From a virus (taxonomy: Duplodnaviria > Heunggongvirae > Uroviricota > Caudoviricetes): DNA of 64,000 nt. A program made the translations under genes and the position numbers. How positions within the stretch are numbered: position 1 is the stretch's first letter; every line of letters begins with the position of its first letter. The DNA lies in the IMG/VR virus record IMGVR_UViG_3300044623_001231. One strand, given 5' to 3'. The notes under the pieces were generated by a model that was given only the letters and a program-made list of their open reading frames with translations, was not told the origin of the DNA and ran no database searches. Shown piece after piece: positions 1,014-48,517 of the stretch.

Positions 1014-1022
1014 AGGATTCGT

Positions 1023-1942: not shown

Positions 1943-2073
1943 TCTATTGGTTCTTTACATTGTGGACATACAGTTGGTGTTTTTGTATAGAATACGTTAC
2001 CGCATTTCTTACAAACTTTCATTTCATCATCACGCCATTCCAAATCTGGGTATCCTATATCTGAATTATTCAT
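1939..2073 (-). CDS. small zinc-ribbon protein (CxxC ... CxxC), 44 aa (or 27 aa from the internal ATG at 2022)
   Basis: read from the DNA: MNNSDIGYPDLEWRDDEMKVCKKCGNVFYTKTPTVCPQCKEPIE; stop overlaps the next start; below the 60-aa track cutoff. Confidence 0.45.
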   Translation of the reverse strand: MNNSDIGYPDLEWRDDEMKVCKKCGNVFYTKTPTVCPQCKEPIE

Positions 2074-3079
2074 TGTTAATAATATACTTTTTCACAAATT
2101 CAACCCCATTGTTGATTTGTAGTTCAAATTTATCCAATCTTACCTTCATTATATCCTTAGCTTTTGGTATCTCACCTTGCCTCATTTTCAAAGTTGCATC
2201 CTTTACCTTAGATAATCCATCCACATCAATCAGTTTTATATTCGATTGAGTTCCAATCAGCGGGTCCACATTTTGTGGTACTGATAAATCGATTATAACT
2301 TTGGTACCTTCCACATCATTAAAATTTATGATATGATAGTCCGCATTGGTTGCTACTATAATGATATCAGCCAATTTAATATACCTTTGGAGGCTTGAAT
2401 ATCTATCACTTTTTACATCCAATTGTTTTGCTATCTTATCTGATAACGATTCAGTTCGATTCAATAACGTAATTTCGTTGGTATCCAATTCCGTAATGAT
2501 ATTTCTCATTGTGGCTCTACCCATCTTACCAGCACCAATTACCAAAATCGTTTTGTTCTGAATATCGGTTACATTTTCCTTAATATATTCAACAGCTGCG
2601 TTTGATACTGATACTGAACCCTCTGATATTTTAGTTTCTGAACGTATTGTTTTAGCTATCGATTGTGCAAAGTTGGTTATCTTTTCAAAATACCCACCCA
2701 ACTTAGCTGAAATACCTGCCATTCTAAGTGCATCCTTAATCTGACCAGCCACTTCATAATCACCCAATAACTGAGAGTCCATTCCAGATGCAACTTCTAC
2801 TAAATGTTCAAAACATTCCCTATCATTAATGTAATATGCTTCTCTTTTGAATAGTTCCATATCACCATCACCTACCAAAAGTTTCAAAAGTTCATCCTCT
2901 GGTTGGTCAAATGAATAGATTTCAGTTCTATTACAAGTTGAAATGATAAAAAAATGAAATAATCCGCTATTAGAATACCTTTCTAAAATAGCAGATTCAG
3001 TTAGTGCAAATTTACTTCTTACAGATAACTCAGTTTTTTTATAACTAATACCAACACAATTTAGTGGTTTAAATATCAT
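2066..3079 (-). CDS. hemA: glutamyl-tRNA reductase (HemA/GluTR) homolog
   Basis: STCNRTEIY active-site Cys motif; NADPH Rossmann VIGAGKMG; 337 aa. Confidence 0.7.
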   Translation of the reverse strand: MIFKPLNCVGISYKKTELSVRSKFALTESAILERYSNSGLFHFFIISTCNRTEIYSFDQPEDELLKLLVGDGDMELFKREAYYINDRECFEHLVEVASGMDSQLLGDYEVAGQIKDALRMAGISAKLGGYFEKITNFAQSIAKTIRSETKISEGSVSVSNAAVEYIKENVTDIQNKTILVIGAGKMGRATMRNIITELDTNEITLLNRTESLSDKIAKQLDVKSDRYSSLQRYIKLADIIIVATNADYHIINFNDVEGTKVIIDLSVPQNVDPLIGTQSNIKLIDVDGLSKVKDATLKMRQGEIPKAKDIMKVRLDKFELQINNGVEFVKKYIINNE

Positions 3080-3315
3080 TCTTCATTAAGGTATTTGATA
3101 AGATTAATAATTGTAATTGTGAAAAAAACCGGCCATACAATAACCATCAAAGCTCTTTCAAAATTATTAAATTGTAATTCATCATCACCTCCTCTTGATA
3201 GGAGCCAATCATAAAACATAGTAAATCCAAATCCTAAAACTAAATATATTAAAATTTCTTGTCCATATTGTAACATCATAACTAATACTTTTTTGTTAAA
3301 TTTTCCACATCCCAC
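3076..3315 (-). CDS. small membrane protein
   Basis: hydrophobic 79-aa ORF, 4-nt overlap. Confidence 0.45.
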   Translation of the reverse strand: MGCGKFNKKVLVMMLQYGQEILIYLVLGFGFTMFYDWLLSRGGDDELQFNNFERALMVIVWPVFFTITIINLIKYLNEE

Positions 3316-3473
3316 ATTTGTTGTGAGATTTCAATTTTTCTTTCTAATTGTATAATAGCTTCTTTTTGAGCTTGAATATACTCCTGCATTAAATAAATTT
3401 GGTGTTTTAATCTACCATTTTCTTCATCCAATTCCCGTTTATCTTTGAAGTATTTTTTAATTTTTTCTATCAT
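3282..3473 (-). CDS. hypothetical coiled-coil protein
   Basis: ORF track. Confidence 0.35.
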   Translation of the reverse strand: MIEKIKKYFKDKRELDEENGRLKHQIYLMQEYIQAQKEAIIQLERKIEISQQMWDVENLTKKY

Positions 3474-4547: not shown

Positions 4548-4562
4548 GTAACTTTTTGGTTT

Positions 4563-4814: not shown

Positions 4815-6527
4815 CTACAAGCTTTTCGATAAAATTTCTTCAACAATTTGAATATCTTCGGGATAATCAACTGCATGGGATTGGTTATCTAACATAACCA
4901 TTTTAATTTTATGCCCCATCTCTAAAAATCTAATGATTTCAATATCCTCATCATATTCTAATGGAGTTTTTTTACCAAAACTACTAAATTCTTTAAGGTG
5001 CTCTCTATTAAATGCGTATATACATACCTGCTTTTTGGGATGGTTACCATTACCTGTTTTGGTTCCGGGTATTGGATTCCTAGACATATAGATTAACTCA
5101 TCATTTAAATTGGTAATTACTTTTGGTATTTTCTTATCCTCTACATTTTCATGTTTGTTTAAATAAGACATACAATTTACAATATGGTTTGGATATTTCA
5201 ACTTAGCTTGAATTACCTTATCAATATCAGTTGGGTCCAATAATGGTTCATCACCTTGGATATTTATAATAATATCAGCATCAATTTCCATTGTTGCTTC
5301 AGCAACTCTATCAGTTCCAGTTAAACAAGAATCTGAAGTTAATATTACATTATATCCATAGCTGTTAACTAAATCTACAATTTCTTCATTTTCAGTTGCT
5401 ATATACACATTTTCAATTCCAACTGAATTCTTAGCTATTTCAGCAACCCAAATAATCATTTCTTTATTTTGGATTTTTGCTAATGGTTTTCCTGGGAATC
5501 TTGAAGATTTGTATCTTGCTGGAATAACAACTGCTATTTTTGGTTTTAATGTTTTTTCAATCTTTGAATAATCGTAAGTTTCTGAATTTTCAATATCCAA
5601 TAAAATATTCTCTATTCTATTTGGATTTAAAAATGAAGATTGTAATGTTTGTGGATATAATGGATGAATGTGCTTCATTCCACTTATCATATAATTGTGA
5701 GTAAATCCCCAATTGTGAGTTATATGTAATGGAATCATCCAATCCGTTAAAACTTTATGAAGTGGTGATGAATTATATAATTTGAATTTGTATTGCAAAT
5801 ATGTAACTAATTGTTCGGTCTTTACGTTTCCAACACCCCTACCCATTCCTAATAATGTACCATCCAACCACACTACACCTTCCTCTAAAGCAGATATACA
5901 ATTAGCGAATGCTAATCCAATGTTATCATGTGTATGAATACCAATATCACATCCAAATTCTTTAAAAATTTTAACAATTTCTTTTACTTTACTTGGTTCA
6001 ACATTACCATATGAATCAGCAAAATATAATGCTATTGGATTAACATTTACTAATTTACTAAAATCTCGCATTTCATCATCCGATAACATAGAAATACTCA
6101 TCAAATTTATCATCAAATCATATCCTTTATTTTTTATATGATTTGCAATTCCAATTGAGTGGGTTATTTCAGAATGTTTTATTGCCAATCTACAAATTGA
6201 AAATGGTGAATCGGATTTTTGATGAATAATATTATCAATCAATGCAAAATCAATAGAATCTCCTTTAATAAAATCTTTAGCATCAATCATAAATGCTAAT
6301 TTAGAATTTAGTGGTAATCTATATTCTAATATTTCCCAAATAAATCTATCATTACATTTTCTAAATTGCCCACCTTTTAGTGGTGATTTATAACCAATCT
6401 CAATAACATCCACACCAGACGTATCCAATGAAAATACTAAATCTTTAACCATTTTTGGTTCAAAATTCCAATTGGTATAGTATCCACCATCTCTTAAAGT
6501 ACAATCTAAAATTTTAACCTTTTTCAT
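4815..6527 (-). CDS. bifunctional DRE-TIM (HMGL-like) aldolase / CMP-Kdo-type cytidylyltransferase
   Basis: N-terminal KILDCTLRDGG and GIHTHDN (His-x-His); C-terminal IAVVIPARYKSSRFPGKPL (KdsB/NeuA signature). Confidence 0.7.
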   Translation of the reverse strand: MKKVKILDCTLRDGGYYTNWNFEPKMVKDLVFSLDTSGVDVIEIGYKSPLKGGQFRKCNDRFIWEILEYRLPLNSKLAFMIDAKDFIKGDSIDFALIDNIIHQKSDSPFSICRLAIKHSEITHSIGIANHIKNKGYDLMINLMSISMLSDDEMRDFSKLVNVNPIALYFADSYGNVEPSKVKEIVKIFKEFGCDIGIHTHDNIGLAFANCISALEEGVVWLDGTLLGMGRGVGNVKTEQLVTYLQYKFKLYNSSPLHKVLTDWMIPLHITHNWGFTHNYMISGMKHIHPLYPQTLQSSFLNPNRIENILLDIENSETYDYSKIEKTLKPKIAVVIPARYKSSRFPGKPLAKIQNKEMIIWVAEIAKNSVGIENVYIATENEEIVDLVNSYGYNVILTSDSCLTGTDRVAEATMEIDADIIINIQGDEPLLDPTDIDKVIQAKLKYPNHIVNCMSYLNKHENVEDKKIPKVITNLNDELIYMSRNPIPGTKTGNGNHPKKQVCIYAFNREHLKEFSSFGKKTPLEYDEDIEIIRFLEMGHKIKMVMLDNQSHAVDYPEDIQIVEEILSKSL

Positions 6528-6531
6528 AAAT

Positions 6532-6915
6532 TTATTTTATATACTTTATGTGTTCTAATGTATCTGTCCAATTTTTAAAAGTAAATCCTTTATCATCCAC
6601 ATAAACAAATGCGTTTGGTTTACCCCAAACTACATCCGAAATGTATTGTTTAAAATTATAAGATTCCAACCAATCCCAAATTAACTCAGTTCCTGTTTTA
6701 TCATTAATCAATGGTCTGTTTGGGTTTGATTTGCAACTGAATATTACTATTTTATAATTATCACTTAGATACTTCAACGCAGTTTCAGTTCCTTCCATTG
6801 GTTCACCATATATAGTACCATCAAAAAATCCTTTAGAATCATTATGAATTACTCCATCAAAATCTAATGCAACTACCTTTTTAGATTTTTCCAAAAACTC
6901 AGCAAAATCTCCCAT
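6532..6915 (-). CDS. HAD-superfamily phosphatase (KdsC/GmhB-like)
   Basis: motif I ALDFDGVI; 127 aa. Confidence 0.6.
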   Translation of the reverse strand: MGDFAEFLEKSKKVVALDFDGVIHNDSKGFFDGTIYGEPMEGTETALKYLSDNYKIVIFSCKSNPNRPLINDKTGTELIWDWLESYNFKQYISDVVWGKPNAFVYVDDKGFTFKNWTDTLEHIKYIK

Positions 6916-7509
6916 TTATATTAAAGTTATGTTTGAAATATTTTTAAGTATATTAAACTCATAATTAATATTATGAGCCGGTCCAACTATACCCGCTTTC
7001 TTAGCTTCTGCAACTTCATCATATGTGGGGTCATAATAGTGACCTGTTTTATTTCCATCAAACCCAATCAAATGAACATTTTTATTAAAAAATAAAGATA
7101 AATTTAATGCTAATGAGGTTCCAGATGTTAACCTAGCAGTTGATTCATTCATATATGGATGCGAAACATTTAATAATCGAGTGTTGGGTTGTATATGTAA
7201 AATTTCTCTTTTACTGTTACCACGTATTTCCGATGTAGTAAATAACTGAGTTTTGTTTACATATTTTTCAAAATTAGGTAGCATGTATTTTGTATGTGGT
7301 AATGTAAAATCACTACAATGGAAAGATATTGCTGATACTTTTGTTCCAACATCACCCTCATACCCTTCTATTTGAAAATCATTAAACCTAATTACACATT
7401 CATACGAATCTATAAATTCCCCTTGATTATCCATTTTACCATTACCAACTAATAGTACAGTATCTGGAAAACTTTTAAATAAAGATTGTACCGAATCGTA
7501 TTTTTGCAT
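6916..7509 (-). CDS. putative sialyltransferase-like glycosyltransferase (GT29 L-motif-like)
   Basis: LLVGNGKMDNQGEFIDSYECVIRFND resembles sialyl-motif L CAVVGNSG...DFVLRMN. Confidence 0.45.
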   Translation of the reverse strand: MQKYDSVQSLFKSFPDTVLLVGNGKMDNQGEFIDSYECVIRFNDFQIEGYEGDVGTKVSAISFHCSDFTLPHTKYMLPNFEKYVNKTQLFTTSEIRGNSKREILHIQPNTRLLNVSHPYMNESTARLTSGTSLALNLSLFFNKNVHLIGFDGNKTGHYYDPTYDEVAEAKKAGIVGPAHNINYEFNILKNISNITLI

Positions 7510-7517
7510 ATCCGATA

Positions 7518-7925: not shown

Positions 7926-7930
7926 ATAAA

Positions 7931-16258: not shown

Positions 16259-16996
16259 TTATACTTTTTCGTTTGTTGGTTTTAACCACATACCATCTTT
16301 AAATATTAGGTTTAAAAAACCAGGGATGATTTCATCTACATCCATAAGTAATCTAAGACTTTTTGGTGTATCATATTTCATCATCTTCATTAACTCTTCT
16401 CTAATTCTTTCACCACTAACAGTTTGTTCTAATTTCTTTAGGATGTTAGGTTGTTTCATTGCTTCCCAAATATCATCACTCATAACAAAATCCTTTGTGA
16501 TTGTAAATCTTAATGCTCTTAGAATTCTCAAAGGGTCATCCATCATAGTTTGTTTAGCTGGTAATGGAGTTCTTAATAAACCTATTTTTAAATCATCAAT
16601 TCCACCAAATATATCTATAAGGTTTCCATCAATATCCTCAGCCATAGCGTTTAATGTAAAATCTCTTCTAAGTAAATCATCTTCCAATGTTCCCAATTCT
16701 AAGATTGGTCTACGAGTTCCCTCAACATATCCAACTTCCTTTCTTGCCATTACGAAATCAGCAACCATCCCAGAGTATTTATGTTCTTTTGGGAACTTAG
16801 CTCTGATAGTAAAACACTCAGGTGTACTTAGGAATATTTCAAAATCATTTACAGTCATCCAATCTGTCATTATTTGAAATCCACTCTCTACAGTCCAATC
16901 TAAGTTGTCCAAAACAAATGTGAAGTCAATATCTTTTGTATCAACCCCTAACAACCTATCTCTAACACAACCCCCTACTTTGAATATCTTTGGCAT
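16259..16996 (-). CDS. cca: tRNA nucleotidyltransferase (CCA-adding, poly(A)-polymerase head domain), minimal
   Basis: MPKIFKVGGCVRDRLLGVDTKDIDF head-domain signature. Confidence 0.7.
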   Translation of the reverse strand: MPKIFKVGGCVRDRLLGVDTKDIDFTFVLDNLDWTVESGFQIMTDWMTVNDFEIFLSTPECFTIRAKFPKEHKYSGMVADFVMARKEVGYVEGTRRPILELGTLEDDLLRRDFTLNAMAEDIDGNLIDIFGGIDDLKIGLLRTPLPAKQTMMDDPLRILRALRFTITKDFVMSDDIWEAMKQPNILKKLEQTVSGERIREELMKMMKYDTPKSLRLLMDVDEIIPGFLNLIFKDGMWLKPTNEKV

Positions 16997-17096: not shown

Positions 17097-18242
17097 TTAG
17101 TGAGAATCTCCCACATCATTTTTCTCTCCATAAATAAGGTAGTCAGGGTTTATAACCTTAGCTACTTTATTACGTTCACCTGTATGGTATTTGATTACAA
17201 TTCCTTCATGTGGAACCTTAGTACCTTCAATCATATTTTTAAATACGAATTTATCTTGCACCTCTTGCGACCAATTTCCAAAATGTAATATTTCAACATA
17301 AGGTAATTGTAATATATCTTTAATCATCAATTTAGAATTGATAGGACTTAAATACTCACCATTCTCCTTTACATCGAATCCTACAAACTCCATTTCTGTC
17401 AAACCATAATCATAGTTCTTTTGAATTCCGGCCCCATAGATTTCTCCATAGATTGTGATTCCATCTCCAATTTCTGGTTCCATTGAATTACTTTTAACGT
17501 ATTCCCATAACCTCTTTTTGATTTCATATTTATCCGCAATTTGGTACCAAACATTGGTATCATAGAAACCTTGAGAATCCGAACCCTTTTCTACATTATG
17601 TGAACCAACTACAAATTCATACCCAATCCACTTATCAGCAAACCCAATGAACTTCTTAACCTTATCCCAAAATGATAATTTAAGTTTCTTAACAATACCA
17701 TATCTAGCATTAGTACCATGTATCTTACGAGTAATTTCAACGGTATCTTCTTCAGTAAACATTCCATCCACATTTTTTAGGTTTGGGAATTTATAGTAGA
17801 TGTGGAAGTTTGGATTGTCTTGGTATCTAATCTTTCTACCTCCGGCTAATTGGATTTGTTTAACTGGTGGTTCGTATTTAGTAATTCCTAAGAATTCCAT
17901 ACAATCATCACCTTCGCCTAAATCAAAATCACCCATAGTAACTCTACCACGTAGGTATTTCATTGGGATAATTAAACATTCAGAATAAACACCTCTTAAT
18001 TTTACAGTCCTAACTCTATTACCTTTACGAAGATAGTTAGTTACACCCATCTCTTCAGAAAGTTCTTCAGGTATAACCGCATCAGTTGTAGCAATGATTG
18101 TTTCATCACCAATAGTAAACTCTCCCTTCTTAGTGATTGCATTCCAACCACCAGCAACTACCAATTCGATGTTATCAGCACCCTCAATTGGATTTACTTC
18201 TTTGATTTTTGCTATGTAGCAAACTGAATTTTCGTTTTTCAT
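17097..18242 (-). CDS. RNA ligase, Rnl2 family
   Basis: motif I KIHGTN; GEIYGAGIQKNYDY matches Rnl2 GEFAGPGIQKNVDY. Confidence 0.7.
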   Translation of the reverse strand: MKNENSVCYIAKIKEVNPIEGADNIELVVAGGWNAITKKGEFTIGDETIIATTDAVIPEELSEEMGVTNYLRKGNRVRTVKLRGVYSECLIIPMKYLRGRVTMGDFDLGEGDDCMEFLGITKYEPPVKQIQLAGGRKIRYQDNPNFHIYYKFPNLKNVDGMFTEEDTVEITRKIHGTNARYGIVKKLKLSFWDKVKKFIGFADKWIGYEFVVGSHNVEKGSDSQGFYDTNVWYQIADKYEIKKRLWEYVKSNSMEPEIGDGITIYGEIYGAGIQKNYDYGLTEMEFVGFDVKENGEYLSPINSKLMIKDILQLPYVEILHFGNWSQEVQDKFVFKNMIEGTKVPHEGIVIKYHTGERNKVAKVINPDYLIYGEKNDVGDSH

Positions 18243-22455: not shown

Positions 22456-22541
22456 GCGGAAAGAGTAGGATTCGAACCCACGATACCTTTCAGTATGCCG
22501 GTTTTCAAGACCGGTGCAATCGACCAACTCTGCCATCTTTC
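22456..22541 (-). tRNA. tRNA-Ser(TGA), class II
   Basis: hand-folded: anticodon stem CCGGT/ACCGG, loop CTTGAAA, long variable arm, T-loop GGTTCGAATCC. Confidence 0.8.
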
Positions 22542-22548
22542 CTCTTTT

Positions 22549-22620
22549 GTAGTCCCACCGGGAATCGAACCCGACTTTTCAGGATGAAAACCTGATGACC
22601 TAACCGATAGTCGATAGGAC
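22549..22620 (-). tRNA. tRNA-Glu(TTC)
   Basis: anticodon stem TCAGG/CCTGA, loop TTTTCAT; acceptor with 2 GU pairs. Confidence 0.75.
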
Positions 22621-22760
22621 CATATAAATGTGAGCCAAACTTATGTACTTAGTGGGTGTACTCCGTTTATACTACTCTCACATTCAAATCAGTAGTGTGA
22701 TGTTAATGGTTGAAAGATATTTACCTTCCTTTCGGCCTACCATCGTGGCCCATGCGTTTG

Positions 22761-22836
22761 TGGAGCGAATAGCAGGAATCGAACCTGCATCTCCAACTTG
22801 GAAGGATGGAGTAATAAGCCATTATACGATATTCGC
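22761..22836 (-). tRNA. tRNA-Gly(TCC), CCA encoded
   Basis: acceptor GCGAATA/TATTCGC, loop CTTCCAA. Confidence 0.75.
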
Positions 22837-23791
22837 TTATATACGATGAGAATACTCGTTTTAATGAACCAGCTTTATAAGGGTTATTGGTTGCCTTAAT
22901 TTCCACTTCCTTTTGAGAAGTACCAATTCAATGTGGGTAAGTAATGTCCTACCACTCATAAAGTTACAAACTACTCTCTTTGTAGTCCACCTCTTCGAAT
23001 CTGCCGACCCGATTAACACCTCGCGATGCTAGAAGTTTTTCGAAAGAATCACATTTCCCTTGAGAGGATTTGTGGCAGGGAACAGCTCCCTACTATGTAC
23101 ACACCTTTCGTCTGCAACTGGTAACCTCTTTCTCTAGTTTGTTTTTTGATTTTGCGTCAATAGGCAAATTGAGTTTTGGTTTGTAGATAAATTCAAGTAG
23201 TGGATTACCACTAGCTCCGCCCCATTTTGAAGAACGGAATACTATACTACTCGATACGTTATCTCTAACGTCATACTTTAAGATTACTTCAGTACCCACT
23301 CTTTGGTGAGAGGTAGGTAAGGATGATAACAACACCACTTGTACTTCATCATACCTTTCGGTTTTAAGTAACCTTTAATATTGAATCACGCAATGATAAG
23401 GAGAGATTAAGTCCTCACTTCTTGCATTAATTCTATGGGTTATTTTTATTGGTGTTCCCACCTCAACTGAAGTATCTACAATACCCCAGTCATCATTCCA
23501 TTTCGCTACGGAGTTACCCTCACTACATTCAGGAACAATGATATCCCACTTGCCTACTCAAGCTCCATCCGAAGATGAAACCGCAAACCCCTCTAAACCA
23601 AAGAGATTCACTTTATCCTACTTTCGTAGTTTATTTAACGACCATAGGCGGCCGTTATACACTATGTAGAACAAGTCTACTATGTGCAATATTTTCAATA
23701 CTTTCAAAGAACTAATTTTCTTTTTCAAAGATACGAATAATTTTTCAATTATCCTAATCTTTTTTTAATTATTTTTCAATAATTTATTTAG

Positions 23792-23864
23792 TTGCGGGAG
23801 AGGGAATCGAACCCCCGACCTCAAGGTTATGAGCCTTGCGAGCTACCGCTGCTACTATCCCGCT
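23792..23864 (-). tRNA. tRNA-Met(CAT), initiator-like
   Basis: loop CTCATAA; 3' end CCCGCAAC with a 1:72 mismatch and A73, as in bacterial tRNA-fMet. Confidence 0.7.
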
Positions 23865-23966
23865 ATATATGTTTAAGAACTTAATTTTCAACTTCTATGT
23901 ATATAAGTATATACAAATATACCAAAACGTAAAAAAAATCGAAAAATAATTTAATTTTTTTATTGT

Positions 23967-24040
23967 GGACCAGAATGGATTCGAACCATTGACCTACGCA
24001 TTATGAGTGCGGTGCTCTAACCAACTGAGCTACAAGTCCA
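23967..24040 (-). tRNA. tRNA-Met(CAT), elongator-like (or Ile2)
   Basis: GTAGCTCAGTTGGTTAGAGCAC ... CTCATAA; resembles elongator Met. Confidence 0.7.
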
Positions 24041-24174
24041 AAACGAGAGAGGGTTCGGGTCTTTCAAGGTTTCTGATTAAGTGCAATGAGTGACGTCTTT
24101 CTACTATAAACCTTTTTTCGAAAATTAATACACTCTACCTCTTAATTACAGCTTCACTCCCTCTCTATTTTTTA

Positions 24175-24360
24175 CTACTTTGCGTCTGCTTCAGTAGTAA
24201 TTTCTGCTACAGTTGAATCAGTTGCGATTACAGCTGATGAATCCGTTGCTACTGCAGTTGAGTCTGTTGTTGACGTTTCTGTGTTTGATTGTTTGTTTCC
24301 ACAAGATGCCATAACTACCGTTACTGCTACTACTGTTAAAATTGCCATTACTTTTTTCAT
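24175..24360 (-). CDS. small lipoprotein (lipobox VMASC) with an S/T/A/D-rich tail
   Basis: MKKVMAILTVVAVTVVMASC signal; internal start of the tracked ORF. Confidence 0.45.
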   Translation of the reverse strand: MKKVMAILTVVAVTVVMASCGNKQSNTETSTTDSTAVATDSSAVIATDSTVAEITTEADAK

Positions 24361-24418
24361 AACTTTTGTTTTAATTGTTTTAAATTGATAAATAAACATA
24401 GGAACCTACCTATATTTG

Positions 24419-24513
24419 TAATCATAATTGGATTCGAACCAATTCCAGCTTTACAATAAAGAACCTTTCGATTCAACCTTTGTGAGGTGCCGCCAACCAA
24501 TGGCCTTATGATT
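24419..24513 (-). ncRNA. atypical tRNA-like element (95 nt)
   Basis: perfect 7-8-bp acceptor (AATCATA(A)) and perfect T-arm ATTGG-TTCGAAT-CCAAT, but no canonical anticodon arm could be folded. Confidence 0.45.
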
Positions 24514-24581
24514 ATTTAAATGAACTATACAAATATACGAAATGTTTTTCACAATTCCAAATATTTTTTCATTTATTTTTG

Positions 24582-24655
24582 TGGAGGATATCGGAGTCGA
24601 ACCGATGACCCCCTGCGTGCAAGGCAGGTGCTCTAGCCAGCTGAGCTAATCCCCC
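24582..24655 (-). tRNA. tRNA-Ala(TGC)
   Basis: G3:U70 identity pair, loop CTTGCAC. Confidence 0.8.
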
Positions 24656-24752
24656 ATTAATCACATCGTACCGGCATTCTGGTTCTCGCTAACAGAAATT
24701 CCATCTCATTTAACCCAGTCTGTGCGATGTGGGTACCGGAGGATGTGATTTG

Positions 24753-24831
24753 TAGTCAGAGCCGGATTCGAACCGGATAAGCAACCACTTTATTGGATTC
24801 GGGAACCGTCCCTCATTACGCCCATCTGACC
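24753..24831 (-). ncRNA. atypical tRNA-like element (79 nt) with an extra GGGACGGTTCCC hairpin
   Basis: acceptor GGTCAGA/TCTGACT and T-loop TTCGAAT present; D/anticodon region non-canonical. Confidence 0.4.
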
Positions 24832-24906
24832 ATTTTAAACATCCAGTCTGACCTTCCAGACAGTACAAGTCGGTATTAATTTCACGTGCCGTTTTGTAGT
24901 GAATGT

Positions 24907-25149
24907 TTAATATCCTATTTGTTCTTTAATCTCCCATTGCTTTTCAATAGAAATTCTTTCAATTCTCTCTACTGGTACAAACCCATCCAATCCCTTATCT
25001 TTAACATCTTCAAAATGTTCGATAGTATCTAAACGAAATCCGAACTTATATCTGATGTATTGGAACTTTTCACCATCCCAATATGCAGTATGGTTATTTC
25101 TGCAAAATCCATTGTACCAACCTTCTTTCATTTCAATTTTTGGTATCAT
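24907..25149 (-). CDS. hypothetical protein embedded in the tRNA array
   Basis: ORF track, 80 aa. Confidence 0.45.
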   Translation of the reverse strand: MIPKIEMKEGWYNGFCRNNHTAYWDGEKFQYIRYKFGFRLDTIEHFEDVKDKGLDGFVPVERIERISIEKQWEIKEQIGY

Positions 25150-25163
25150 ACTTTTTGTTTTAG

Positions 25164-25237
25164 TGAACCCATCAGGAATCGAACCTGAAACCTACACATT
25201 AGAAGTGTGTTGCTCTATCCAATTGAGCTATGGGTCC
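25164..25237 (-). tRNA. tRNA-Arg(TCT)
   Basis: anticodon stem ACACA/TGTGT, loop CTTCTAA. Confidence 0.8.
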
Positions 25238-25451
25238 AAATTCACACTCTATTTTATCCAACTACAAGTGTGGTGGTTGTCCCCATAGCGGGCCCATTGG
25301 GCCTTTGATTGGGTTAGGAATAAACCAATTAAACTCTTTCGGAGCAGATGGTTAATCTGGATAGAGCCTTTCCCTATCAGAAGTCCCATATGGCCATCAC
25401 ACCACTTCTCATCATATTGGACATACTATCCGTTGTATGTTACGGAACGTG

Positions 25452-25523
25452 CGGTCTCACCGGGAATCGAACCCGGCATACCGCCGTGACAGGGCGGCGT
25501 TATAGCCGATTAACTATGGGACC
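25452..25523 (-). tRNA. tRNA-Asp(GTC)
   Basis: anticodon stem CCGCC/GGCGG, loop CTGTCAC, G73. Confidence 0.8.
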
Positions 25524-25609
25524 AAAAGTGATAGGTGACCCTCCTATCGTGAAATGATATATCATTTCTTTTCTTTATAGAATCCGAAGATACTGTAGGA
25601 ACATTTTTG

Positions 25610-25682
25610 AGCCTCCGGTCGGGCTCGAACCAACCACCTGCTGATTACAAATCAGCTGCTCTACCAAATGAGCTACGGAGGC
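25610..25682 (-). tRNA. tRNA-Thr(TGT)
   Basis: perfect acceptor GCCTCCG, loop TTTGTAA. Confidence 0.8.
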
Positions 25683-25843
25683 AAAATTAGGAAAGCTACC
25701 TGATATCTTTACAGCCGAATTAGGTACGGATTTCTACATTTAGAATGTTCCTCAAATTCAAACCCCTTTTATGTCCGTACTATGTGGAGGATAAAAAACC
25801 ACATTAGTTGATAAAAAATGAATTCTTCACCTCTTTCCTATTG

Positions 25844-25929
25844 TACCGATGGGCGGACTCGAACCGCCACGAGCATTACTACCCAAGGGATTTTAAGTCC
25901 CTCGTGTCTACCATTTCACCACATCGGCA
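25844..25929 (-). tRNA. tRNA-Leu(TAA), class II
   Basis: anticodon stem AGGGA/TCCCT, loop CTTAAAA, long variable arm. Confidence 0.8.
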
Positions 25930-26045
25930 TTTTAGATTTTCAACATGTCAAAGAACAAAACTGTCTCTCTTTTACTATGTAAAGATACAACATAATTTTG
26001 AATTATACAAGCTTTTTTAAAAACTTTTATAATTTTTGTGGAGGT

Positions 26046-26070
26046 GGCGAGAGTCGAACTCGCGTCCAAA
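26046..26070 (-). other. orphan tRNA 3' half (T-arm GCGAG-TTCGACT-CTCGC plus acceptor CACCTCC-A) with no matching 5' half within 100 nt
   Basis: shares the CACCUCCA 3' end with tRNA-Phe; pseudo-tRNA, split tRNA or recombination scar. Confidence 0.4.
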
Positions 26071-26488
26071 TACGGATTTAATAAACATCATTCACAAGCT
26101 TAGTACATTTTTCTTAATGTACAAAATAGATAAAGATTTATACATTCATTATCATTAATGTTTCCAACTCGATTTCGGGTTCAGTTGGGTTCCACCTGAG
26201 TTCACATTCTATTTTAAGTCCCACGATGTGTGCGGGAGGGATTATGCTGCTACAGCGTAATCGGCACCAACGAAAGACATAGCATCTTCGAAGGTCATTG
26301 TAGATAATTCTACTGCGTTTATTGTTCGATAGGTATTTACGGATTTCCATCTAACCCGGCTTGCAACTTACCAATTCATCGTACCTGTCAAAACCAGGCA
26401 CCCCCATAAATCAAAGAACTTATCTTTTTTGATACTTCAAATATACAAAATCTTTTTGGTATTTCCAAATTTAATTTCAATTATTTTG

Positions 26489-26562
26489 TGACCCCGAATG
26501 GATTCGAACCATTGACTCCCTCATTAAAAGTGAGGTGCTCTAACCAACTGAGCTACGAGGTC
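26489..26562 (-). tRNA. tRNA-Lys(TTT)
   Basis: anticodon stem CCTCA/TGAGG, loop CTTTTAA. Confidence 0.8.
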
Positions 26563-26568
26563 ATTCTG

Positions 26569-26638
26569 AGGTTAAGGTTGGAATCGAACCAACTCCGTAG
26601 ATTTTGCAGACCTACCGGCCTCCAAGACCATCCTAACC
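26569..26638 (-). tRNA. tRNA-Cys(GCA)
   Basis: loop CTGCAAA, short D-loop, 70 nt. Confidence 0.7.
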
Positions 26639-26642
26639 ATTC

Positions 26643-27095
26643 CTATCTACAAGTGTAATCTGCTGCCCTTGTTGCGATTTGCATATCAGGTTTAAGATTA
26701 ACTTCATATCCTAATGAGTTTGCCCAACCCTTTGTAGATTGTACTAACTTAGAAGAGTAATGCTTTTCATTTAAGTTGTAATCTAAATCAATCTGAATAG
26801 TTACACCTAAGTTACTCCTTAACCATTCAGCCACTTCAATAGAATATTCAGTTTCTTTCCACAATCTTGTCCACTTATCTAAAATCTTATCTACTTTTAG
26901 TTTGTGATTAATATAGTGTACACCTGTATTACCATACCTATACGCAATTACAATTGAATATGATGTACAATCTGATAAGTTTTGAGAATCACACCCAATA
27001 TGAATATCCGCATGTGGACATTCTTTTAATATATCAATCGTATGTTGTACGATATCTACCACTTCCCCATTTACTTTTCTAAAAACTTTTACCAT
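26643..27095 (-). CDS. hypothetical protein (possible RNase H-like fold) inside the tRNA array
   Basis: 150-aa ORF flanked by tRNA-Cys and tRNA-Phe. Confidence 0.5.
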   Translation of the reverse strand: MVKVFRKVNGEVVDIVQHTIDILKECPHADIHIGCDSQNLSDCTSYSIVIAYRYGNTGVHYINHKLKVDKILDKWTRLWKETEYSIEVAEWLRSNLGVTIQIDLDYNLNEKHYSSKLVQSTKGWANSLGYEVNLKPDMQIATRAADYTCR

Positions 27096-27121
27096 TACTA
27101 TTAATATTAATTATTAAATTG

Positions 27122-27194
27122 TGGAGGTGAGTGGAATCGAACCACTTCCTCTGGATTTTCAGTCCAGCGCTTCTACCAAGTTAGCTTCACCTCC
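27122..27194 (-). tRNA. tRNA-Phe(GAA)
   Basis: perfect acceptor GGAGGTG/CACCTCC, loop CTGAAAA. Confidence 0.85.
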
Positions 27195-27199
27195 TTTTG

Positions 27200-27270
27200 C
27201 ACGGGTAGAAAGATTCGAACTTCCATCTAAGCTTTTGGAGAGCCGTATGCTACCATTGCACCATACCCGT
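27200..27270 (-). tRNA. tRNA-Trp(CCA)
   Basis: loop CTCCAAA, G73. Confidence 0.7.
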
Positions 27271-27276
27271 ATTTTG

Positions 27277-27348
27277 TACACTTAGAGAGATTCGAACTCC
27301 CATTATCCGGTTCGTAGCCGGAGGTTCTATCCGTTGAACTATAAGTGC
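27277..27348 (-). tRNA. tRNA-Arg(ACG)
   Basis: anticodon stem TCCGG/CCGGA, loop CTACGAA. Confidence 0.8.
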
Positions 27349-27352
27349 ATTG

Positions 27353-27434
27353 TACCCAAGGAGAGACTCGAACTCTCAAGCCTTTCGGCCACGGTTTCTA
27401 AGACCGCTGTGTCTACCAATTCCACCACTCGGGC
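27353..27434 (-). tRNA. tRNA-Leu(TAG), class II
   Basis: loop CTTAGAA, variable arm GGCCGAAAGGC. Confidence 0.75.
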
Positions 27435-27441
27435 ATTGTTG

Positions 27442-27515
27442 GGTGATTAATGGGATTCGAACCCATCCTATCAGAATCACAATCTGACGTGCTAACCGCT
27501 AACACTATAAACACC
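27442..27515 (-). tRNA. tRNA-His(GTG) with encoded G-1:C73
   Basis: anticodon stem TCAGA/TCTGA, loop TTGTGAT; extra 5' G pairs with C73. Confidence 0.8.
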
Positions 27516-27572
27516 ATGTTGTGTATAATATATTATCCATTTACCCCATATATCTGAGTTTTATATAATATA

Positions 27573-27643
27573 TTGTACATTGTTGTGTGTATGAGGTTCG
27601 AACTCATTTGGTCATCCTTATGAGAGATAACTCTTTTCCACTA
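27573..27643 (-). tRNA. third CAT-anticodon tRNA (Ile2/Met candidate) with a weak D-arm
   Basis: loop CTCATAA in a GU-rich stem; T-arm ATGAG-TTCGAAC-CTCAT. Confidence 0.45.
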
Positions 27644-27840
27644 AGCCACACAATTTAAAAGAAGTATAACCAGAATTTTGTGTAAACCTATCATTTGTCT
27701 TTTTGCCCCAACCTTGTCCGAATTGCTCACCTTCATAGACTATTTTGGGTTGCATCCTCAGTAGTAAAACGAATTTCTTCTCCTACTTTAAGCAATGATG
27801 TTCTGAGTTTCCTCTCCGTAGAGCGATAGGAACTTCTTTG

Positions 27841-27928
27841 CGGAGAGTATAGGATTCGAACCTATGGAACCCTTACGAGTTCAACACCTTAGCAGGGTGC
27901 CGCTTTAAACCAACTCAGCCAACTATCC
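27841..27928 (-). tRNA. tRNA-Ser(GCT), class II
   Basis: loop CTGCTAA, long variable arm. Confidence 0.75.
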
Positions 27929-27933
27929 AATTG

Positions 27934-28007
27934 TTGGTAATATAGGAATCGAACCTATAACCTTTCGCGTATCAGGCGAATGCTCTAACCAATTGAGCTA
28001 ATTACCA
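27934..28007 (-). tRNA. tRNA-Ile(GAT)
   Basis: anticodon stem TTCGC/GCGAA, loop CTGATAC. Confidence 0.8.
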
Positions 28008-28085
28008 ATAAGTTGCAGGATATCGCTTAACCTGCGGTGTTGATATCATTACACACCTTTGATGTTACCACCAGCGATTTTTTTG

Positions 28086-28169
28086 TGGGAGCAGAAGGAT
28101 TCGAACCTACTACCTATGCGGGTTACCAGATTTACAGTCTGGCGCCTAACCAATTCGTGCGTTACTCCC
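28086..28169 (-). tRNA. tRNA-Tyr(GTA), class II
   Basis: anticodon stem CCAGA/TCTGG, loop CTGTAAA. Confidence 0.8.
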
Positions 28170-28275
28170 AATGGCGTTCCATATTACTCACATCTGATAA
28201 CCATATTGGGTTACCCACTTAATCTTACAACAGCTTTAAACTGAGAGATTGTAAGAATGTGTATGGAACATTTTG

Positions 28276-28349
28276 TAGAAGATATAGGATTCGAACCTAT
28301 GACCCTTTGGATGTAAACCAAATGCTCTAACCAACTGAGCTAATCTTCT
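28276..28349 (-). tRNA. tRNA-Val(TAC)
   Basis: anticodon stem TTTGG/CCAAA, loop TTTACAT. Confidence 0.8.
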
Positions 28350-28354
28350 ATTTG

Positions 28355-28430
28355 TCTAGATGGTAGGATTCGAACCTACGTGCTCTCGCGTCCAAGGCGA
28401 GCGAGAAAAACCTGACTCCTCTACATCTAG
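28355..28430 (-). tRNA. tRNA-Pro(TGG)
   Basis: anticodon stem CTCGC/GCGAG, loop CTTGGAC, 11-nt D-loop. Confidence 0.75.
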
Positions 28431-28436
28431 TTATTG

Positions 28437-28507
28437 TTATCCCTCGAGGACTCGAACCTCGACTGCCTGAATCAAAGTCAGGTGTCCTGCCATTAGACCA
28501 AAGGATA
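28437..28507 (-). tRNA. tRNA-Gln(TTG)
   Basis: anticodon stem CCTGA/TCAGG, loop CTTTGAT. Confidence 0.8.
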
Positions 28508-28544
28508 ATTTGTGTTACCAATATTTCAAAGAACTATACTTTTG

Positions 28545-28616
28545 CGGGGAGGGAGAATTTCGAAATCTCGACCTGATGATTAACAGTCATCTGCTCTTCC
28601 TCTGAGCTACCACCCC
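28545..28616 (-). tRNA. tRNA-Asn(GTT)
   Basis: anticodon stem GATGA/TCATC, loop CTGTTAA. Confidence 0.75.
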
Positions 28617-37105: not shown

Positions 37106-38713
<1,608 letters not shown>

Positions 38714-39010
38714 TTATAATTTCATTAATAAATCCGAATCTCTAACAAGGTTATAACTAACCCCACCTAACTTAATTTTCTCACCAGGAGTTCCATTTGA
38801 TATTAATACTTTATCACCTTCATTTACTGATAATTTAATCCACTCACCACCTTGTGATGGGTATCCATCACTAACTGCAATTACAACTGCTTCCACAACT
38901 GTTTGAGTTGATTGATTTAAGATGATACCACCAGATGATTTTTTATCTGAAGTATCTTCTAATTTTAAGAGAACTCTATCTCCTAATGGTTTTCCTACAT
39001 TTTCTGCCAT
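38714..39010 (-). CDS. groS: co-chaperonin GroES (Cpn10)
   Basis: PLGDRVLLKLED...SGGIIL mobile-loop region; operonic with groEL. Confidence 0.85.
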   Translation of the reverse strand: MAENVGKPLGDRVLLKLEDTSDKKSSGGIILNQSTQTVVEAVVIAVSDGYPSQGGEWIKLSVNEGDKVLISNGTPGEKIKLGGVSYNLVRDSDLLMKL

Positions 39011-45760: not shown

Positions 45761-46309
45761 TTAATTTGGAATATCCAAATATTTTAGTATGTTTTTTAAA
45801 GTATCATCGTTAACATCTACATAAATAAATGGAATATGGTGTTTAATTAGGGTATTTTCTATCTCCAAATCCAGCATTTTGGATTCATTCAATGATTGGT
45901 ACCTTTCCTTTTCATTATACCCACCCTCAGAACGTTTTAGAACGATATTAAGCGTATCATATTGATTATGAATGTCTAACACCATTTTATCAAATGAATC
46001 ACCATACAGCGTTGCTGGGTACTCAGTACCTTTATATACTGATTTATATACCAATGATAATACAATTGGTGAATCCAATATAATATAGTCAACCTTCCCA
46101 TAACTCTTAACAATTCCCCTATGTTGGTTTGCAAGTACATACAATTGGTCTTTGATAGCAGAATGATTCTCATCCCATGCCAATACTTTTGGAAACTCAT
46201 ATGGATTATCACAACTTATGTGTTTCTTTTTTAACTTATATGTAAGACCATTGGCAATGGATGATTTCCCAATACCAGGTCCTCCAAATAGATTTACTAT
46301 TTTACTCAT
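45761..46309 (-). CDS. P-loop (d)NMP-kinase-like protein
   Basis: Walker A FGGPGIGKSS. Confidence 0.55.
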   Translation of the reverse strand: MSKIVNLFGGPGIGKSSIANGLTYKLKKKHISCDNPYEFPKVLAWDENHSAIKDQLYVLANQHRGIVKSYGKVDYIILDSPIVLSLVYKSVYKGTEYPATLYGDSFDKMVLDIHNQYDTLNIVLKRSEGGYNEKERYQSLNESKMLDLEIENTLIKHHIPFIYVDVNDDTLKNILKYLDIPN

Positions 46310-47157
46310 AGGGATTGTATGTATGAATGTAATTTATCAGATGGACTCCAACCTAATCGATTTAAAGTATCATAGTTTTCTCTTAAAGTTGAACGATAAT
46401 TTCCAGCTTGGTCTGGGATATGTACTTTTTGGATTTCACCAAATCTTTCTACCATCATATCATAAATTTCATTTATAGAATAGTTAACACCAGTTCCCAA
46501 TTCCCAAGCATCATCATGCTTTTCTGAACCCATACCAACTCTATACAATCCATCAACAATATCTTCAACGTGAGTGAAATCTCTGCGTTGGTCACCATCA
46601 CCAACTATTGTAAATGGTAATCCATTTTGAAGTTGATATCTCCAAATTCCAATTACAGCTGCCCATTTACCATCTACTAATTCATTTGGACCATAGACAT
46701 TATAGAATCTACAAATTTCAAAATCACAACCATAAGCAGTTTTGTACATCTTTAAGATATCCTCACCAATCTTCTTATCAGTTGCGTATGGTGAAGTTTG
46801 AGGGTTACACCAACGAGATGATGAACCTGCGTAAACTACCTTTACATTATTTTCTTTAGCCCATTCAGCTACCATTTGTGTACCACCCGCATTTACCCTA
46901 AATGTTTCCATTGGGTCATCAAATGATGGTTGGATTCTACTTAGTGCAGCAAGATGGTAACATAAATCAAAGTTATCACCTTTCCAATACATCAAATGTT
47001 CTATATCACCATACACATAATTACATCCTTCAATTTCATACTCCTTCAATCCAGTTGAAAGGTCATCCAATGAAACTACATGATGTCCTTCGGATAGTAA
47101 TCGTTTAATTAAGTTTGAACCGATGAAGCCGTTCCCGCCTGTTACTAATACTTTCAT
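46306..47157 (-). CDS. NAD-dependent epimerase/dehydratase (extended SDR)
   Basis: MKVLVTGGNGFIGSNL Rossmann; YxxxK region. Confidence 0.7.
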   Translation of the reverse strand: MKVLVTGGNGFIGSNLIKRLLSEGHHVVSLDDLSTGLKEYEIEGCNYVYGDIEHLMYWKGDNFDLCYHLAALSRIQPSFDDPMETFRVNAGGTQMVAEWAKENNVKVVYAGSSSRWCNPQTSPYATDKKIGEDILKMYKTAYGCDFEICRFYNVYGPNELVDGKWAAVIGIWRYQLQNGLPFTIVGDGDQRRDFTHVEDIVDGLYRVGMGSEKHDDAWELGTGVNYSINEIYDMMVERFGEIQKVHIPDQAGNYRSTLRENYDTLNRLGWSPSDKLHSYIQSL

Positions 47158-47161: not shown

Positions 47162-48517
47162 TTAATTGTCTAAATAAATCCAATCGGAATGTTTATCCGA
47201 TTTTAGTTTCTGTCTTACTCTTTCAGATGAGATACCAAAATGGTTACCAGCATCTTCCATTGAATAGAATTCAATTCCATCACAACTTATAACTGGTATT
47301 TCTAATCTAATATTATTATCCCACATATCCATCATTTCACCATAGGTAATATCATTACTATCCACCCGTTTCCAATGTCTATATTTGGGATTGTTTGATT
47401 CAATATAATTTCTAGCAATTTGTTCGGTGAAATCTCCACCAATTAAATCTGCTATTTGTTTTGGGTTCTCAAACGGAACTCCATCTACTTCGTATTTTAT
47501 ATGTGGGTTGGTTTCTTCACCAATGATTTGCCACTCTTTGTAAGATGATTTAGTACTTCTACATCTTCTCTCTACTTCAGATGCAACTAACTTATCTGCA
47601 TCCACATCAATTGCCGCATGTCTAAATGATAGGTATTCCTTCCCATCTACTTTACACATAGGTTCACCACCTTCAATCTCAATAGTTGCGATATCAGGGT
47701 TTCCTTTTACAAAAATTAGAATGTTTTGATGAACTGATGGTATTTTACGATTTCTATCAAAGTAAGTTTTACCAACTCGTGAAGCTTGGTGTTGAGAATT
47801 GAATAGAATCATATCATTATAGAATTCCATTCCAGCTGATTCCAACATATCTATGGTTTTACGAACCAAACCTCTATATCTACCTTTAGAATACTTACCA
47901 GTTACGGATGGTTCTCTAACTTCAGATACTACAATCCCAAAGAATCGGTTATCTTTTAGTTTTTGAACTGATTTTAGGAGTATTGATTCATATACTTTAT
48001 CAAATGAATCCACATCCATATTGGAAATATCATTCACATCATCAGTATAAATCTCCAAATCGTAGTAAGGTGGGCATGTAAATACAAAATCAAATGATTC
48101 ATCGGCTACCTTGTCCAATTCCTCATTCGAATCACCATTAATCCATAAGGGTTTTTTTGATTGCTCTTTGTTGGCTTTTACTTGTGATTTGGATAAATCA
48201 ATTCCAACGTATCTTCGGTTCATCTCTTCACATACGATACCTCTCACACTACCACCAGCGAATGGGTCTAATACCATTCCACCTTTGGGTGAGAACCAAT
48301 CGTACATCAATTCACAAAGTACTGGGTCAAATACGGAAACTGAATTGGGTGTATCCCAAAAGATAGTTTTGGATTGAGTATCCTCTCTACCTAATTCAGA
48401 TTGGATACCATAATTAGTAATCCAATATTCCTTTCTTTGCTTCCATTCCTTTGTTCTAGTATCTAATACTGAAAAGGGTGTAAACATATAACATATTTTA
48501 TAAACACAAAGATACAA
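47162..48517 (-). CDS. DNA methyltransferase (N6_N4_Mtase family) with a C-terminal extension
   Basis: DPFAGGSVRG (motif I) and FTCPPYYD (motif IV, (D/N/S)PPY-like). Confidence 0.65.
   Translation of the reverse strand: MYLCVYKICYMFTPFSVLDTRTKEWKQRKEYWITNYGIQSELGREDTQSKTIFWDTPNSVSVFDPVLCELMYDWFSPKGGMVLDPFAGGSVRGIVCEEMNRRYVGIDLSKSQVKANKEQSKKPLWINGDSNEELDKVADESFDFVFTCPPYYDLEIYTDDVNDISNMDVDSFDKVYESILLKSVQKLKDNRFFGIVVSEVREPSVTGKYSKGRYRGLVRKTIDMLESAGMEFYNDMILFNSQHQASRVGKTYFDRNRKIPSVHQNILIFVKGNPDIATIEIEGGEPMCKVDGKEYLSFRHAAIDVDADKLVASEVERRCRSTKSSYKEWQIIGEETNPHIKYEVDGVPFENPKQIADLIGGDFTEQIARNYIESNNPKYRHWKRVDSNDITYGEMMDMWDNNIRLEIPVISCDGIEFYSMEDAGNHFGISSERVRQKLKSDKHSDWIYLDN

Follow-up and report, generated by a model that had tools for sequence, protein, structure and literature searches.

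A 64,000-nucleotide stretch of DNA from a virus of the class Caudoviricetes (IMG/VR record IMGVR_UViG_3300044623_001231; analysed over its whole length and referred to here as the window) contains a hemA (gtrR) gene, the product of which is a glutamyl-tRNA reductase (GluTR) of 337 aa that ends before the dimerisation domain. We consider it likely that this protein is a catalytically competent, minimal GluTR and serves as an auxiliary metabolic gene (AMG) of a jumbo phage of ~270 kb, in which it would take over the rate-limiting step of 5-aminolevulinate (ALA) formation and would use the HemL of the host.

The hemA open reading frame (ORF) lies on the minus strand, a point on which the first-pass annotation of this DNA was silent, and runs from an ATG to a stop codon, while the plus-strand frame opposite to it is closed by many stops. 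Its start codon shares bases with the stop codon of a small upstream ORF (ATGA), and hemA is thus part of a tight co-directional array. The protein consists of a catalytic domain (residues ~1 to 150, including Cys49), an NADPH domain (~165 to 292, with the motif G182-x-G184-x-x-G187) and a terminal "spinal" helix (294 to 336). Both the signature STCNRTEIY (residues 47 to 55) and the NADPH-binding fold that the first-pass annotation had read from the sequence are present.

Family membership was consistently recovered by profile and structure searches. The catalytic-domain profile PF05201 (GlutR_N) was matched over its entire length (positions 1 to 151 of 151, by residues 9 to 149; E value 6.9e-31, 107.5 bits, cutoff 27), and the Shikimate_DH-type NADP domain PF01488 was matched at 2.6e-24, with marginal matches to other Rossmann families in Pfam. 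The NCBIfam hemA equivalog TIGR01035 was detected at 9.4e-67, its 225.7 bits exceeding the curated cutoff of 209.55; scores against the lineage-specific PRK models were all far under their cutoffs. The best solved relatives by sequence were the GluTRs of Methanopyrus kandleri (1gpj; 3.8e-33) and Arabidopsis (4n7r; 7.7e-25). A model built with AlphaFold2 from 98 homologues (predicted local distance difference test score of 88.3, predicted template modelling score of 0.80) was compared with the PDB using Foldseek, and the top seven matches were all GluTR chains (4n7r_A, 8.6e-23, template modelling [TM] score of 0.79). The resemblance to acyl-ACP reductase was far weaker (2.3e-07, TM score of 0.36). 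The window protein is a member of the GluTR family. Profile searches did not place it in another NAD(P)-dependent dehydrogenase family devoid of the GluTR catalytic domain, an outcome that the first-pass annotation had allowed for; PF05201 is complete and GluTR structures are the best relatives.

The active site is likewise preserved. In M. kandleri GluTR, Cys48 is the catalytic nucleophile that attacks the aminoacyl bond (PMC3778395), and Cys49 of the phage protein aligns with this position of 1gpj. Among the residues invariant in the 98 homologues are S47-T48-C49-N50-R51-T52-E53, H92, G99, D101-S102-Q103, the glycines G182, G184 and G187, and N207-R208; roles of residues other than that equivalent to Cys48 are assigned from conservation. 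Of the 34 positions with a conservation of ≥90% across 131 diverse full-length GluTRs, phage HemA is identical at 31. The three deviations (A to C89, I to V110 and W to Q321) all lie outside the catalytic-domain motifs, and cellular Bacteroidota GluTRs have the same residues around the catalytic Cys and the same conserved GxDSQ(L/I)LGDYE segment.

What the phage protein lacks is the C-terminal part of the enzyme. Of the three Pfam domains with which the first-pass annotation proposed to check the protein, the catalytic and NADP domains were found, as described above, while the dimerisation domain (PF00745), the absence of which had gone unnoticed, gave no Pfam match even at an E value of ≤1. 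The match to TIGR01035 ends at profile position 334 of 416, leaving positions 335 to 416 unmatched; the AlphaFold2 model finishes in a single long helix, which corresponds to the start of the spinal helix, with nothing beyond it; and aligned Bacteroidota GluTRs extend ~60 to 70 residues past the phage terminus. Canonical GluTRs (TIGR01035; 1GPJ from M. kandleri; 4N7R, 5CHE and 5YJL from Arabidopsis) share with the phage protein the S-T-C-N-R-x-E Cys motif, the NADPH Rossmann domain and the start of the spinal helix. In contrast to them, the phage protein is ~60 to 70 residues shorter, has no dimerisation domain and presumably does not form the V-shaped dimer, and it is encoded by a phage in which it stands alone, without other hem genes. 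The dimerisation domain has been proposed to form a V-shaped dimer that docks the HemL dimer and channels the reactive semialdehyde (PMC3778395).

The short form is not confined to the window. A search of 5.8 billion proteins returned a series of metagenome-only homologues of 329 to 340 aa, all without PF00745, at identities from 93% down to 50%; at ≤46% identity, this series gives way to ordinary Bacteroidota GluTRs of ~400 aa. In a library of 1.84 billion proteins clustered at 50%, the short series corresponds to one representative at 389 bits, and the next match scored 263 bits. A second short type, of 321 aa, was found in 14 independent members. In a neighbour-joining (NJ) tree (100 bootstraps, limited taxon labels), the 329- to 340-aa group received a bootstrap value of 100 and formed one clade with the 321-aa type at a value of 93. 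Identities within this clade span 93% to 40% at fixed lengths of 321 to 340 aa. For its closest unsaturated pair, the ratio of nonsynonymous to synonymous substitution rates (dN/dS) was 0.12 at a dS of 0.86, and the short group possesses a conserved C-terminal tail of its own (QINxGxEFVKKY). Because the lengths are fixed over a divergent clade, dN/dS is low and the tail is conserved, the truncation is, judging from these sequence comparisons, not damage but a short form kept under purifying selection.

Cellular enzymes provide a precedent. Two bacterial proteins without PF00745 head complete hem operons: P0216 (335 aa, locus L094) in the order hemA-hemC-hemD-hemE-hemB-hemL-radical SAM (hemN)-hemH, and P0270 (339 aa, locus L095) in the order hemA-hemC-hemD-hemB-hemL. 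Like phage HemA, they consist of two domains plus a helix and stop at the same point in the spinal helix. Unlike phage HemA, they are bacterial, reside within hem operons and share only 33 to 35% identity with it, compared with 40 to 44% for full-length Chitinophagaceae GluTRs. As their grouping with the viral clade received 52% bootstrap support in the NJ tree and identity is this low, the truncation has probably occurred recurrently and was not inherited from the cellular short forms. By analogy with these operon-borne enzymes, a GluTR without the dimerisation domain is plausible as a working HemA.

Linkage to other tetrapyrrole genes was observed in related phages. As the first-pass annotation had reported for positions 39638 to 40779, the window encodes a haem oxygenase and a ferredoxin-dependent bilin reductase, the genes of which overlap by 13 nt (Table 1). 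In the 102-kb IMG/VR contig L011, genes for haem oxygenase (8695-9354), bilin reductase (9338-9982) and HemA (10001-10966) are contiguous and co-oriented, and the same order was assembled independently in L096 (8837-10966), a 111-kb contig from another sample. Compared with their window orthologues, the L011 and L096 proteins show identities of 51% (haem oxygenase), 55 to 56% (bilin reductase), 42% (HemA) and 70% (the neighbouring RNA ligase). In a further relative (L010), a bilin reductase gene lies 9.3 kb from hemA.

These arrangements recall a known viral system. The cassette valaS-hemO-pcyA/X has been described from aquatic metagenomes, with the ALA synthase AlaS occurring alone or in the three-gene locus and with "broken" versions as well (Wegner et al. 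2024, PMC11480375). L011 and L096 have exactly this three-gene arrangement of an ALA-step enzyme with a haem oxygenase and a bilin reductase, GluTR replacing AlaS, and the window, where all three genes are present but split by 36.6 kb, resembles a broken cassette. Unlike viral AlaS, phage GluTR is a tRNA-dependent reductase of the C5 route and not a pyridoxal phosphate-dependent Shemin enzyme; it needs HemL and consumes Glu-tRNA. Wegner et al. (2024, PMC11480375) argued that phages benefit from AlaS precisely because, with it, they bypass the two enzymes of the C5 route and do not draw on Glu-tRNA. The overlapping pair in the window is also similar to the classic phage two-gene module (PcyX, 5OWG; cyanophage haem oxygenase, PebS and PcyA). 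Those modules were described without a C5 enzyme, whereas the phages studied here additionally carry a GluTR and an unusually short haem oxygenase. From gene content, some phages would thus appear to use the C5 route and not only the Shemin route, and the short GluTR clade would be both a counter-example and a complement to the argument of Wegner et al.

Several observations concern these pigment-related genes and their surroundings. At 170 to 176 aa, the haem oxygenases of the two phage lineages are short compared with a 204-position Pfam profile and solved enzymes of ~210 to 240 aa; those of the window and of L096 (8837-9367) match only the first ~140 profile positions and are 51% mutually identical. 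Four relatives encode a TonB-dependent receptor of 903 to 1093 aa (L001, 8632-11367; L002, 7953-10664; L003, 6589-9324; L006, 13685-16966), located 1.6 to 2.7 kb from hemA on the opposite strand and carrying a Bacteroidota-type CarboxypepD_reg N-terminus. For its subtype (haem, siderophore or SusC), all NCBIfam matches were far below cutoff, and a phage receptor of this kind beside a haem-synthesis gene might reflect an iron or haem theme. L006 also contains a gene of the CpeT (bilin lyase-like) family (6079-6741), and L010 contains a gene for a B12-binding radical SAM enzyme (7912-9543) together with several 2-oxoglutarate (2OG)-Fe(II) oxygenases. These genes add to the pigment- or cofactor-linked auxiliary repertoire of phages whose gene affinities appear to be non-cyanobacterial.

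The phage origin of the window, as given by the first-pass annotation, is borne out by its gene content. The sequence has ~32% G+C and a uniformly negative GC skew, and all gene-like ORFs of at least 90 aa are on the minus strand. The genes include those for GP88, an RNA ligase with a PHA02142 OB domain, a DNA ligase, ThyA, GroEL and GroES, and a 2OG-Fe(II) oxygenase of an AMG family, along with a phage-type tRNA nucleotidyltransferase, a methylase that continues into an I-TevI DNA-binding domain, a CobS-like ATPase and a VWA protein with weak similarity to CobT. No bacterial housekeeping genes were seen in the 64 kb. Homologues of HemA at 81%, 56% and 51% identity are located amid small, unannotated, co-oriented genes and genes for a UvsW-like helicase, CpeT, Kyano_Gp96 and PhoH. 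An alignment-based scan identified two relatives as IMG/VR viral contigs, whereas a single-protein scan of IMG/VR had given no HemA match. A megablast search of window positions 1 to 12000 against GenBank phages gave no match.

The exact HemA protein was found on 93 contigs, two of which measure 270,754 and 268,043 bp, and this recurrence fits a widespread jumbo phage of ~270 kb. In the ~270-kb genome JGI 3300042460 Ga0453165_0000015, hemA is located at ~139.3 to 140.3 kb. Several contigs with the exact protein measure ~268 to 271 kb; the longest, at 477,274 bp, could reflect concatenation, misassembly or a larger relative. In 185,579 species genomes, the short clade was absent and the best match had 44% identity. 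The best 80 cellular matches were all from Bacteroidota, with Chitinophagaceae at 40 to 44% followed by Flavobacteriaceae at 35 to 39%. This agrees with the first-pass suggestion of a Bacteroidetes origin at the level of the phylum; the exact placement of the viral clade among cellular GluTRs received 38% support in the NJ tree. Judging from homology, the host of the phage is probably a member of the Bacteroidota.

A number of candidate sequences were set aside. Eight tblastn hits to GenBank "phage" records (Staphylococcus, Listeria, Acinetobacter and faecal entries; 22 to 32% identity) were rejected as precedents for phage hemA: the one inspected is a bacterial chromosome (with rplY, prsA, lolB and dnaG), and the remainder are short or lack annotation. 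A protein of apparently 337 aa that carries PF00745 (P0032) was rejected as an intermediate form, as it is encoded, with a garbled 5' end, on a chimeric contig. This 18-kb contig, NODE_3182 (L009, 1-1220), contains 721 nt that are 97% identical to phage hemA, then switches at the conserved DLSVP motif to the 3' end of a bacterial hemA followed by hemC-D-E-F-B. It is most simply explained as an assembly chimera, real recombination between phage and host being the other possibility, and the bacterium concerned may be a host candidate. A full-length GluTR (393 aa) on a 132-kb "viral" contig (L013) groups with Flavobacterium and looks like host or prophage-flanking DNA. On a 4.2-kb IMG/VR contig (L012, 2679-4202), a 507-aa ORF leads from an unrelated N-terminus of ~210 aa into a GluTR lacking its first ~40 residues, representing either a fusion or a chimera.

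Searches for HemL, the partner enzyme of the C5 route, were negative. No HemL was found in the window or in the flanks of any relative, and no aminotransferase-class ORF was present among the window ORFs scanned. A degenerate scan for the HemL motif GGVNSPVRAF gave 0 hits in 2.9 million IMG/VR contigs while detecting both bacterial hemL controls; it replaced an alignment scan of IMG/VR with lineage-specific peptides, which was uninformative. The phage thus appears to carry just the first, rate-limiting step of the C5 route.

The substrate of GluTR could be supplied in part by the phage itself. The tRNA-Glu gene reported by the first-pass annotation is present, although it ends at position 22621 and not at 22620, making it one base longer. 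It belongs to an array of 25 tRNAs for all 20 amino acids (with three tRNA-Met) plus a tmRNA of 368 nt with an unusual predicted tag (AVELSTMTFEDAMSFVGADYAVAA); an RNaseH-like ORF lies inside the array, and genes for a tRNA nucleotidyltransferase and an RNA ligase lie near it (Table 1). Phage tRNA-Glu has U34-U35-C36-A37, a U13.G22 wobble pair, an A-rich variable loop of 4 nt and no residue 47, core features that are listed for the recognition of Escherichia coli tRNA-Glu by GluRS (PMC9976931). It carries A11-U24, compared with U11-A24 in E. coli. The same tRNA-Glu core is reportedly recognised by GluTR, a finding ascribed to Randau and colleagues in 2004. From these sequence features, phage tRNA-Glu could be a GluTR substrate. 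The first-pass annotation had listed the tRNA among the signs that the phage redirects host tetrapyrrole/haem flux; a specific tie between the tRNA and hemA was rejected as evidence, as the array serves all 20 amino acids.

A role for the phage enzyme can be proposed. Host GluRS would charge host and/or phage tRNA-Glu, Cys49 would attack Glu-tRNA(Glu) to form a thioester, NADPH would reduce the thioester to glutamate-1-semialdehyde, and host HemL would convert this product to ALA. A phage copy of the rate-limiting and most tightly regulated step of the C5 route could keep up or raise tetrapyrrole flux as host expression collapses, and flux into haem would be independent of the control of host HemA. 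The haem might feed respiratory enzymes as well as the phage haem oxygenase and PcyX-like reductase, which would convert haem to biliverdin and Fe2+ and then to a bilin. That the ALA step is a control point, and the viral rationale for targeting it, have been set out previously (Wegner et al. 2024, PMC11480375). In plants, FLU docks at the C-terminal dimerisation domain of GluTR (PMC4726326). By analogy, loss of this domain may remove a regulatory or docking surface from the phage enzyme, which for bacteria is speculation.

Several points weigh against this interpretation. The dimerisation domain that is missing here is present in every solved GluTR, the conserved Trp of the spinal helix is Gln321 in the phage protein, and the cellular short GluTRs, being only distantly related, serve as a precedent by analogy. 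In the window, 36.6 kb separate hemA from the haem oxygenase and bilin reductase pair, and the relatives L001 to L004 and L006 have neither of these genes within 10 kb of hemA. The analysis covered ~72 kb of the ~270-kb genome, and a phage hemL could therefore be located elsewhere; the host taxon rests on homology. Furthermore, GluTR and phage protein synthesis draw on the same Glu-tRNA, and it was on this ground that Wegner et al. (2024, PMC11480375) argued against phages taking the C5 route.

Explanations other than a minimal, working GluTR were considered. The phage protein might bind or hydrolyse Glu-tRNA(Glu) without productive reduction, acting as an esterase or a sequestering factor that modulates translation, haem synthesis in the host or the host pool of Glu-tRNA. 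Without the dimerisation domain it could be uncoupled from HemL, and the phage invests heavily in tRNA (25 tRNAs, a tmRNA, a CCA-adding enzyme and an RNA ligase). GluTR is also said, from work by Moser and Schauer, to hydrolyse Glu-tRNA in the absence of NADPH. However, the entire Rossmann domain, GxGxxG motif included, does not vary within the clade, and a pure esterase could dispense with it. In relatives, hemA directly adjoins the genes for haem oxygenase and bilin reductase, which indicates a tetrapyrrole role, and cellular short forms head hem operons; we regard this explanation as unlikely. It is very unlikely that a reductase with the GluTR fold has shifted to another activated acyl substrate (an aminoacyl-tRNA or acyl-thioester) and makes a product other than a tetrapyrrole precursor. 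Such a shift would be compatible with the resemblance to acyl-ACP reductase, much the weaker one, and with the long phage branch at 40 to 44% identity to the nearest cellular GluTRs. Against it stand a score above the hemA equivalog cutoff, the identity of the catalytic-Cys region and the GxDSQ(L/I)LGDYE segment to Bacteroidota GluTRs, and the fact that only 3 of the 34 family-conserved positions differ, none of them in a catalytic-domain motif.

The two remaining explanations concern the status of the gene. A captured host hemA that lost its 3' end and is now non-functional and decaying would account for the absence of ~60 to 70 C-terminal residues found in nearly all GluTRs, but this explanation is effectively refuted by the same truncation at fixed lengths over a clade diverged to 40% identity (including the 14 independent 321-aa members), by the dN/dS of 0.12 and the clade's own conserved tail, and by the exact sequence on 93 contigs. 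Scarcely credible, too, is a bacterial hemA in a bacterial island, a mis-binned contig or an assembly chimera. GenBank "phage" records matching hemA were host DNA where checked, and P0032 does sit on a chimeric contig in which a fragment of phage hemA runs into the 3' end of a bacterial hemA, followed by hemCDEFB. The window itself, however, consists of co-oriented genes with phage families and a 25-tRNA/tmRNA array, with no housekeeping gene seen in 64 kb; contigs of ~268 to 271 kb recur across samples, 0 of 185,579 species genomes contain the short clade, two relatives are IMG/VR viral contigs, and the three-gene cassette was assembled independently twice.

A more far-reaching version of the minimal GluTR proposal is also conceivable, albeit doubtful. 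The viral clade could be a monomeric, regulation-free GluTR served by a private pool of phage tRNA-Glu, forming with haem oxygenase and bilin reductase a self-contained branch from glutamate via ALA and haem to bilin that meets a phage-specific bilin or iron purpose in non-photosynthetic Bacteroidota. If true, such an arrangement would decouple tetrapyrrole supply from both host haem feedback and host translation.

The first-pass annotation was not aware of HemA as a described phage AMG. Two virome surveys do name hemA, together with hemB, hemC, hemD and hemL, among automatically called viral AMGs, without analysis, and no paper characterising a viral GluTR was found in open-access papers and bioRxiv. 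BFVD contains no viral GluTR-like structure. Phage control of tetrapyrrole metabolism has been characterised through haem oxygenase, PebS, PcyA, PcyX, CobS and, since 2024, AlaS. A widespread, conserved viral GluTR clade in the cassette position of AlaS would make the C5 entry step a viral target as well, in phages whose closest gene donors are among Bacteroidota that use the C5 pathway. A natural minimal GluTR also bears on whether activity requires dimerisation and the proposed GluTR2-GSAM2 channelling complex, on regulation via the C-terminal domain and on why non-cyanobacterial phages make bilins.

Table 1. Positions of hemA and other features in the 64-kb window
Feature	Position	Strand	Remarks
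Truncated glutamyl-tRNA reductase gene (hemA/gtrR), 337 aa	2066..3079	minus	Profiles, PDB matches, model, conserved residues, dN/dS
IMPDH/GMP-reductase-family protein, 357 aa	3474..4547		8.3e-101
Sialic-acid-like sugar module	4815..7509 and 46306..47157		
GT29 sialyltransferase-family protein	6916..7509		Part of sugar module
tRNA nucleotidyltransferase	16259..16996		Near tRNA array
RNA ligase	17097..18242		Near tRNA array
tRNA array	22456..28616	minus	25 tRNAs and tmRNA
tRNA-Glu(UUC)	22549..22621	minus	Possible extra substrate carrier
tmRNA	26038..26405	minus	Within tRNA array
RNaseH-like ORF	26643..27095		Inside tRNA array
GroEL (533 aa) and GroES (98 aa) pair	37106..39010		
Ferredoxin-dependent bilin reductase, 213 aa	39638..40279	minus	PF05996, 4.5e-23; closest solved PcyX (5owg, 2.7e-18), then PcyA
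Short haem oxygenase, 170 aa	40267..40779	minus	PF01126, 2e-12; 51% identity to L011/L096 orthologue
Thymidylate synthase, 367 aa	42157..43260		
NAD-dependent epimerase/dehydratase	46306..47157		Part of sugar module
N6_N4_Mtase DNA methyltransferase	47162..48517		I-TevI-type DNA-binding domain fused at C-terminus
CobS-like AAA+ ATPase (phrog_249 "porphyrin biosynthesis")	56361..57569	minus	A further tetrapyrrole-linked auxiliary gene of this phage
CobT-like VWA protein	58022..60139	minus	Weak Pfam matches below cutoff

The best GenBank phage match of the CobT-like protein is to a 484-kb uncultured phage, and this protein is a probable partner of the CobS-like ATPase. The IMPDH/GMP-reductase-family gene belongs to the hemA array, with two small ORFs separating it from hemA on the upstream side. 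The sugar module includes a 570-aa protein in which an HMGL-like domain is joined to a CMP-sugar cytidylyltransferase (CTP_transf_3). As the GT29 family is found mainly in eukaryotes, its occurrence in a phage is unusual. The GroEL and GroES genes are located directly downstream of the haem oxygenase and bilin reductase genes. Thymidylate synthase spans its 266-position profile from end to end, which implies one or more insertions totalling ~100 residues. Homing-endonuclease genes of the GIY-YIG/NUMOD and HNH types are present in the related contigs L011 and L096.

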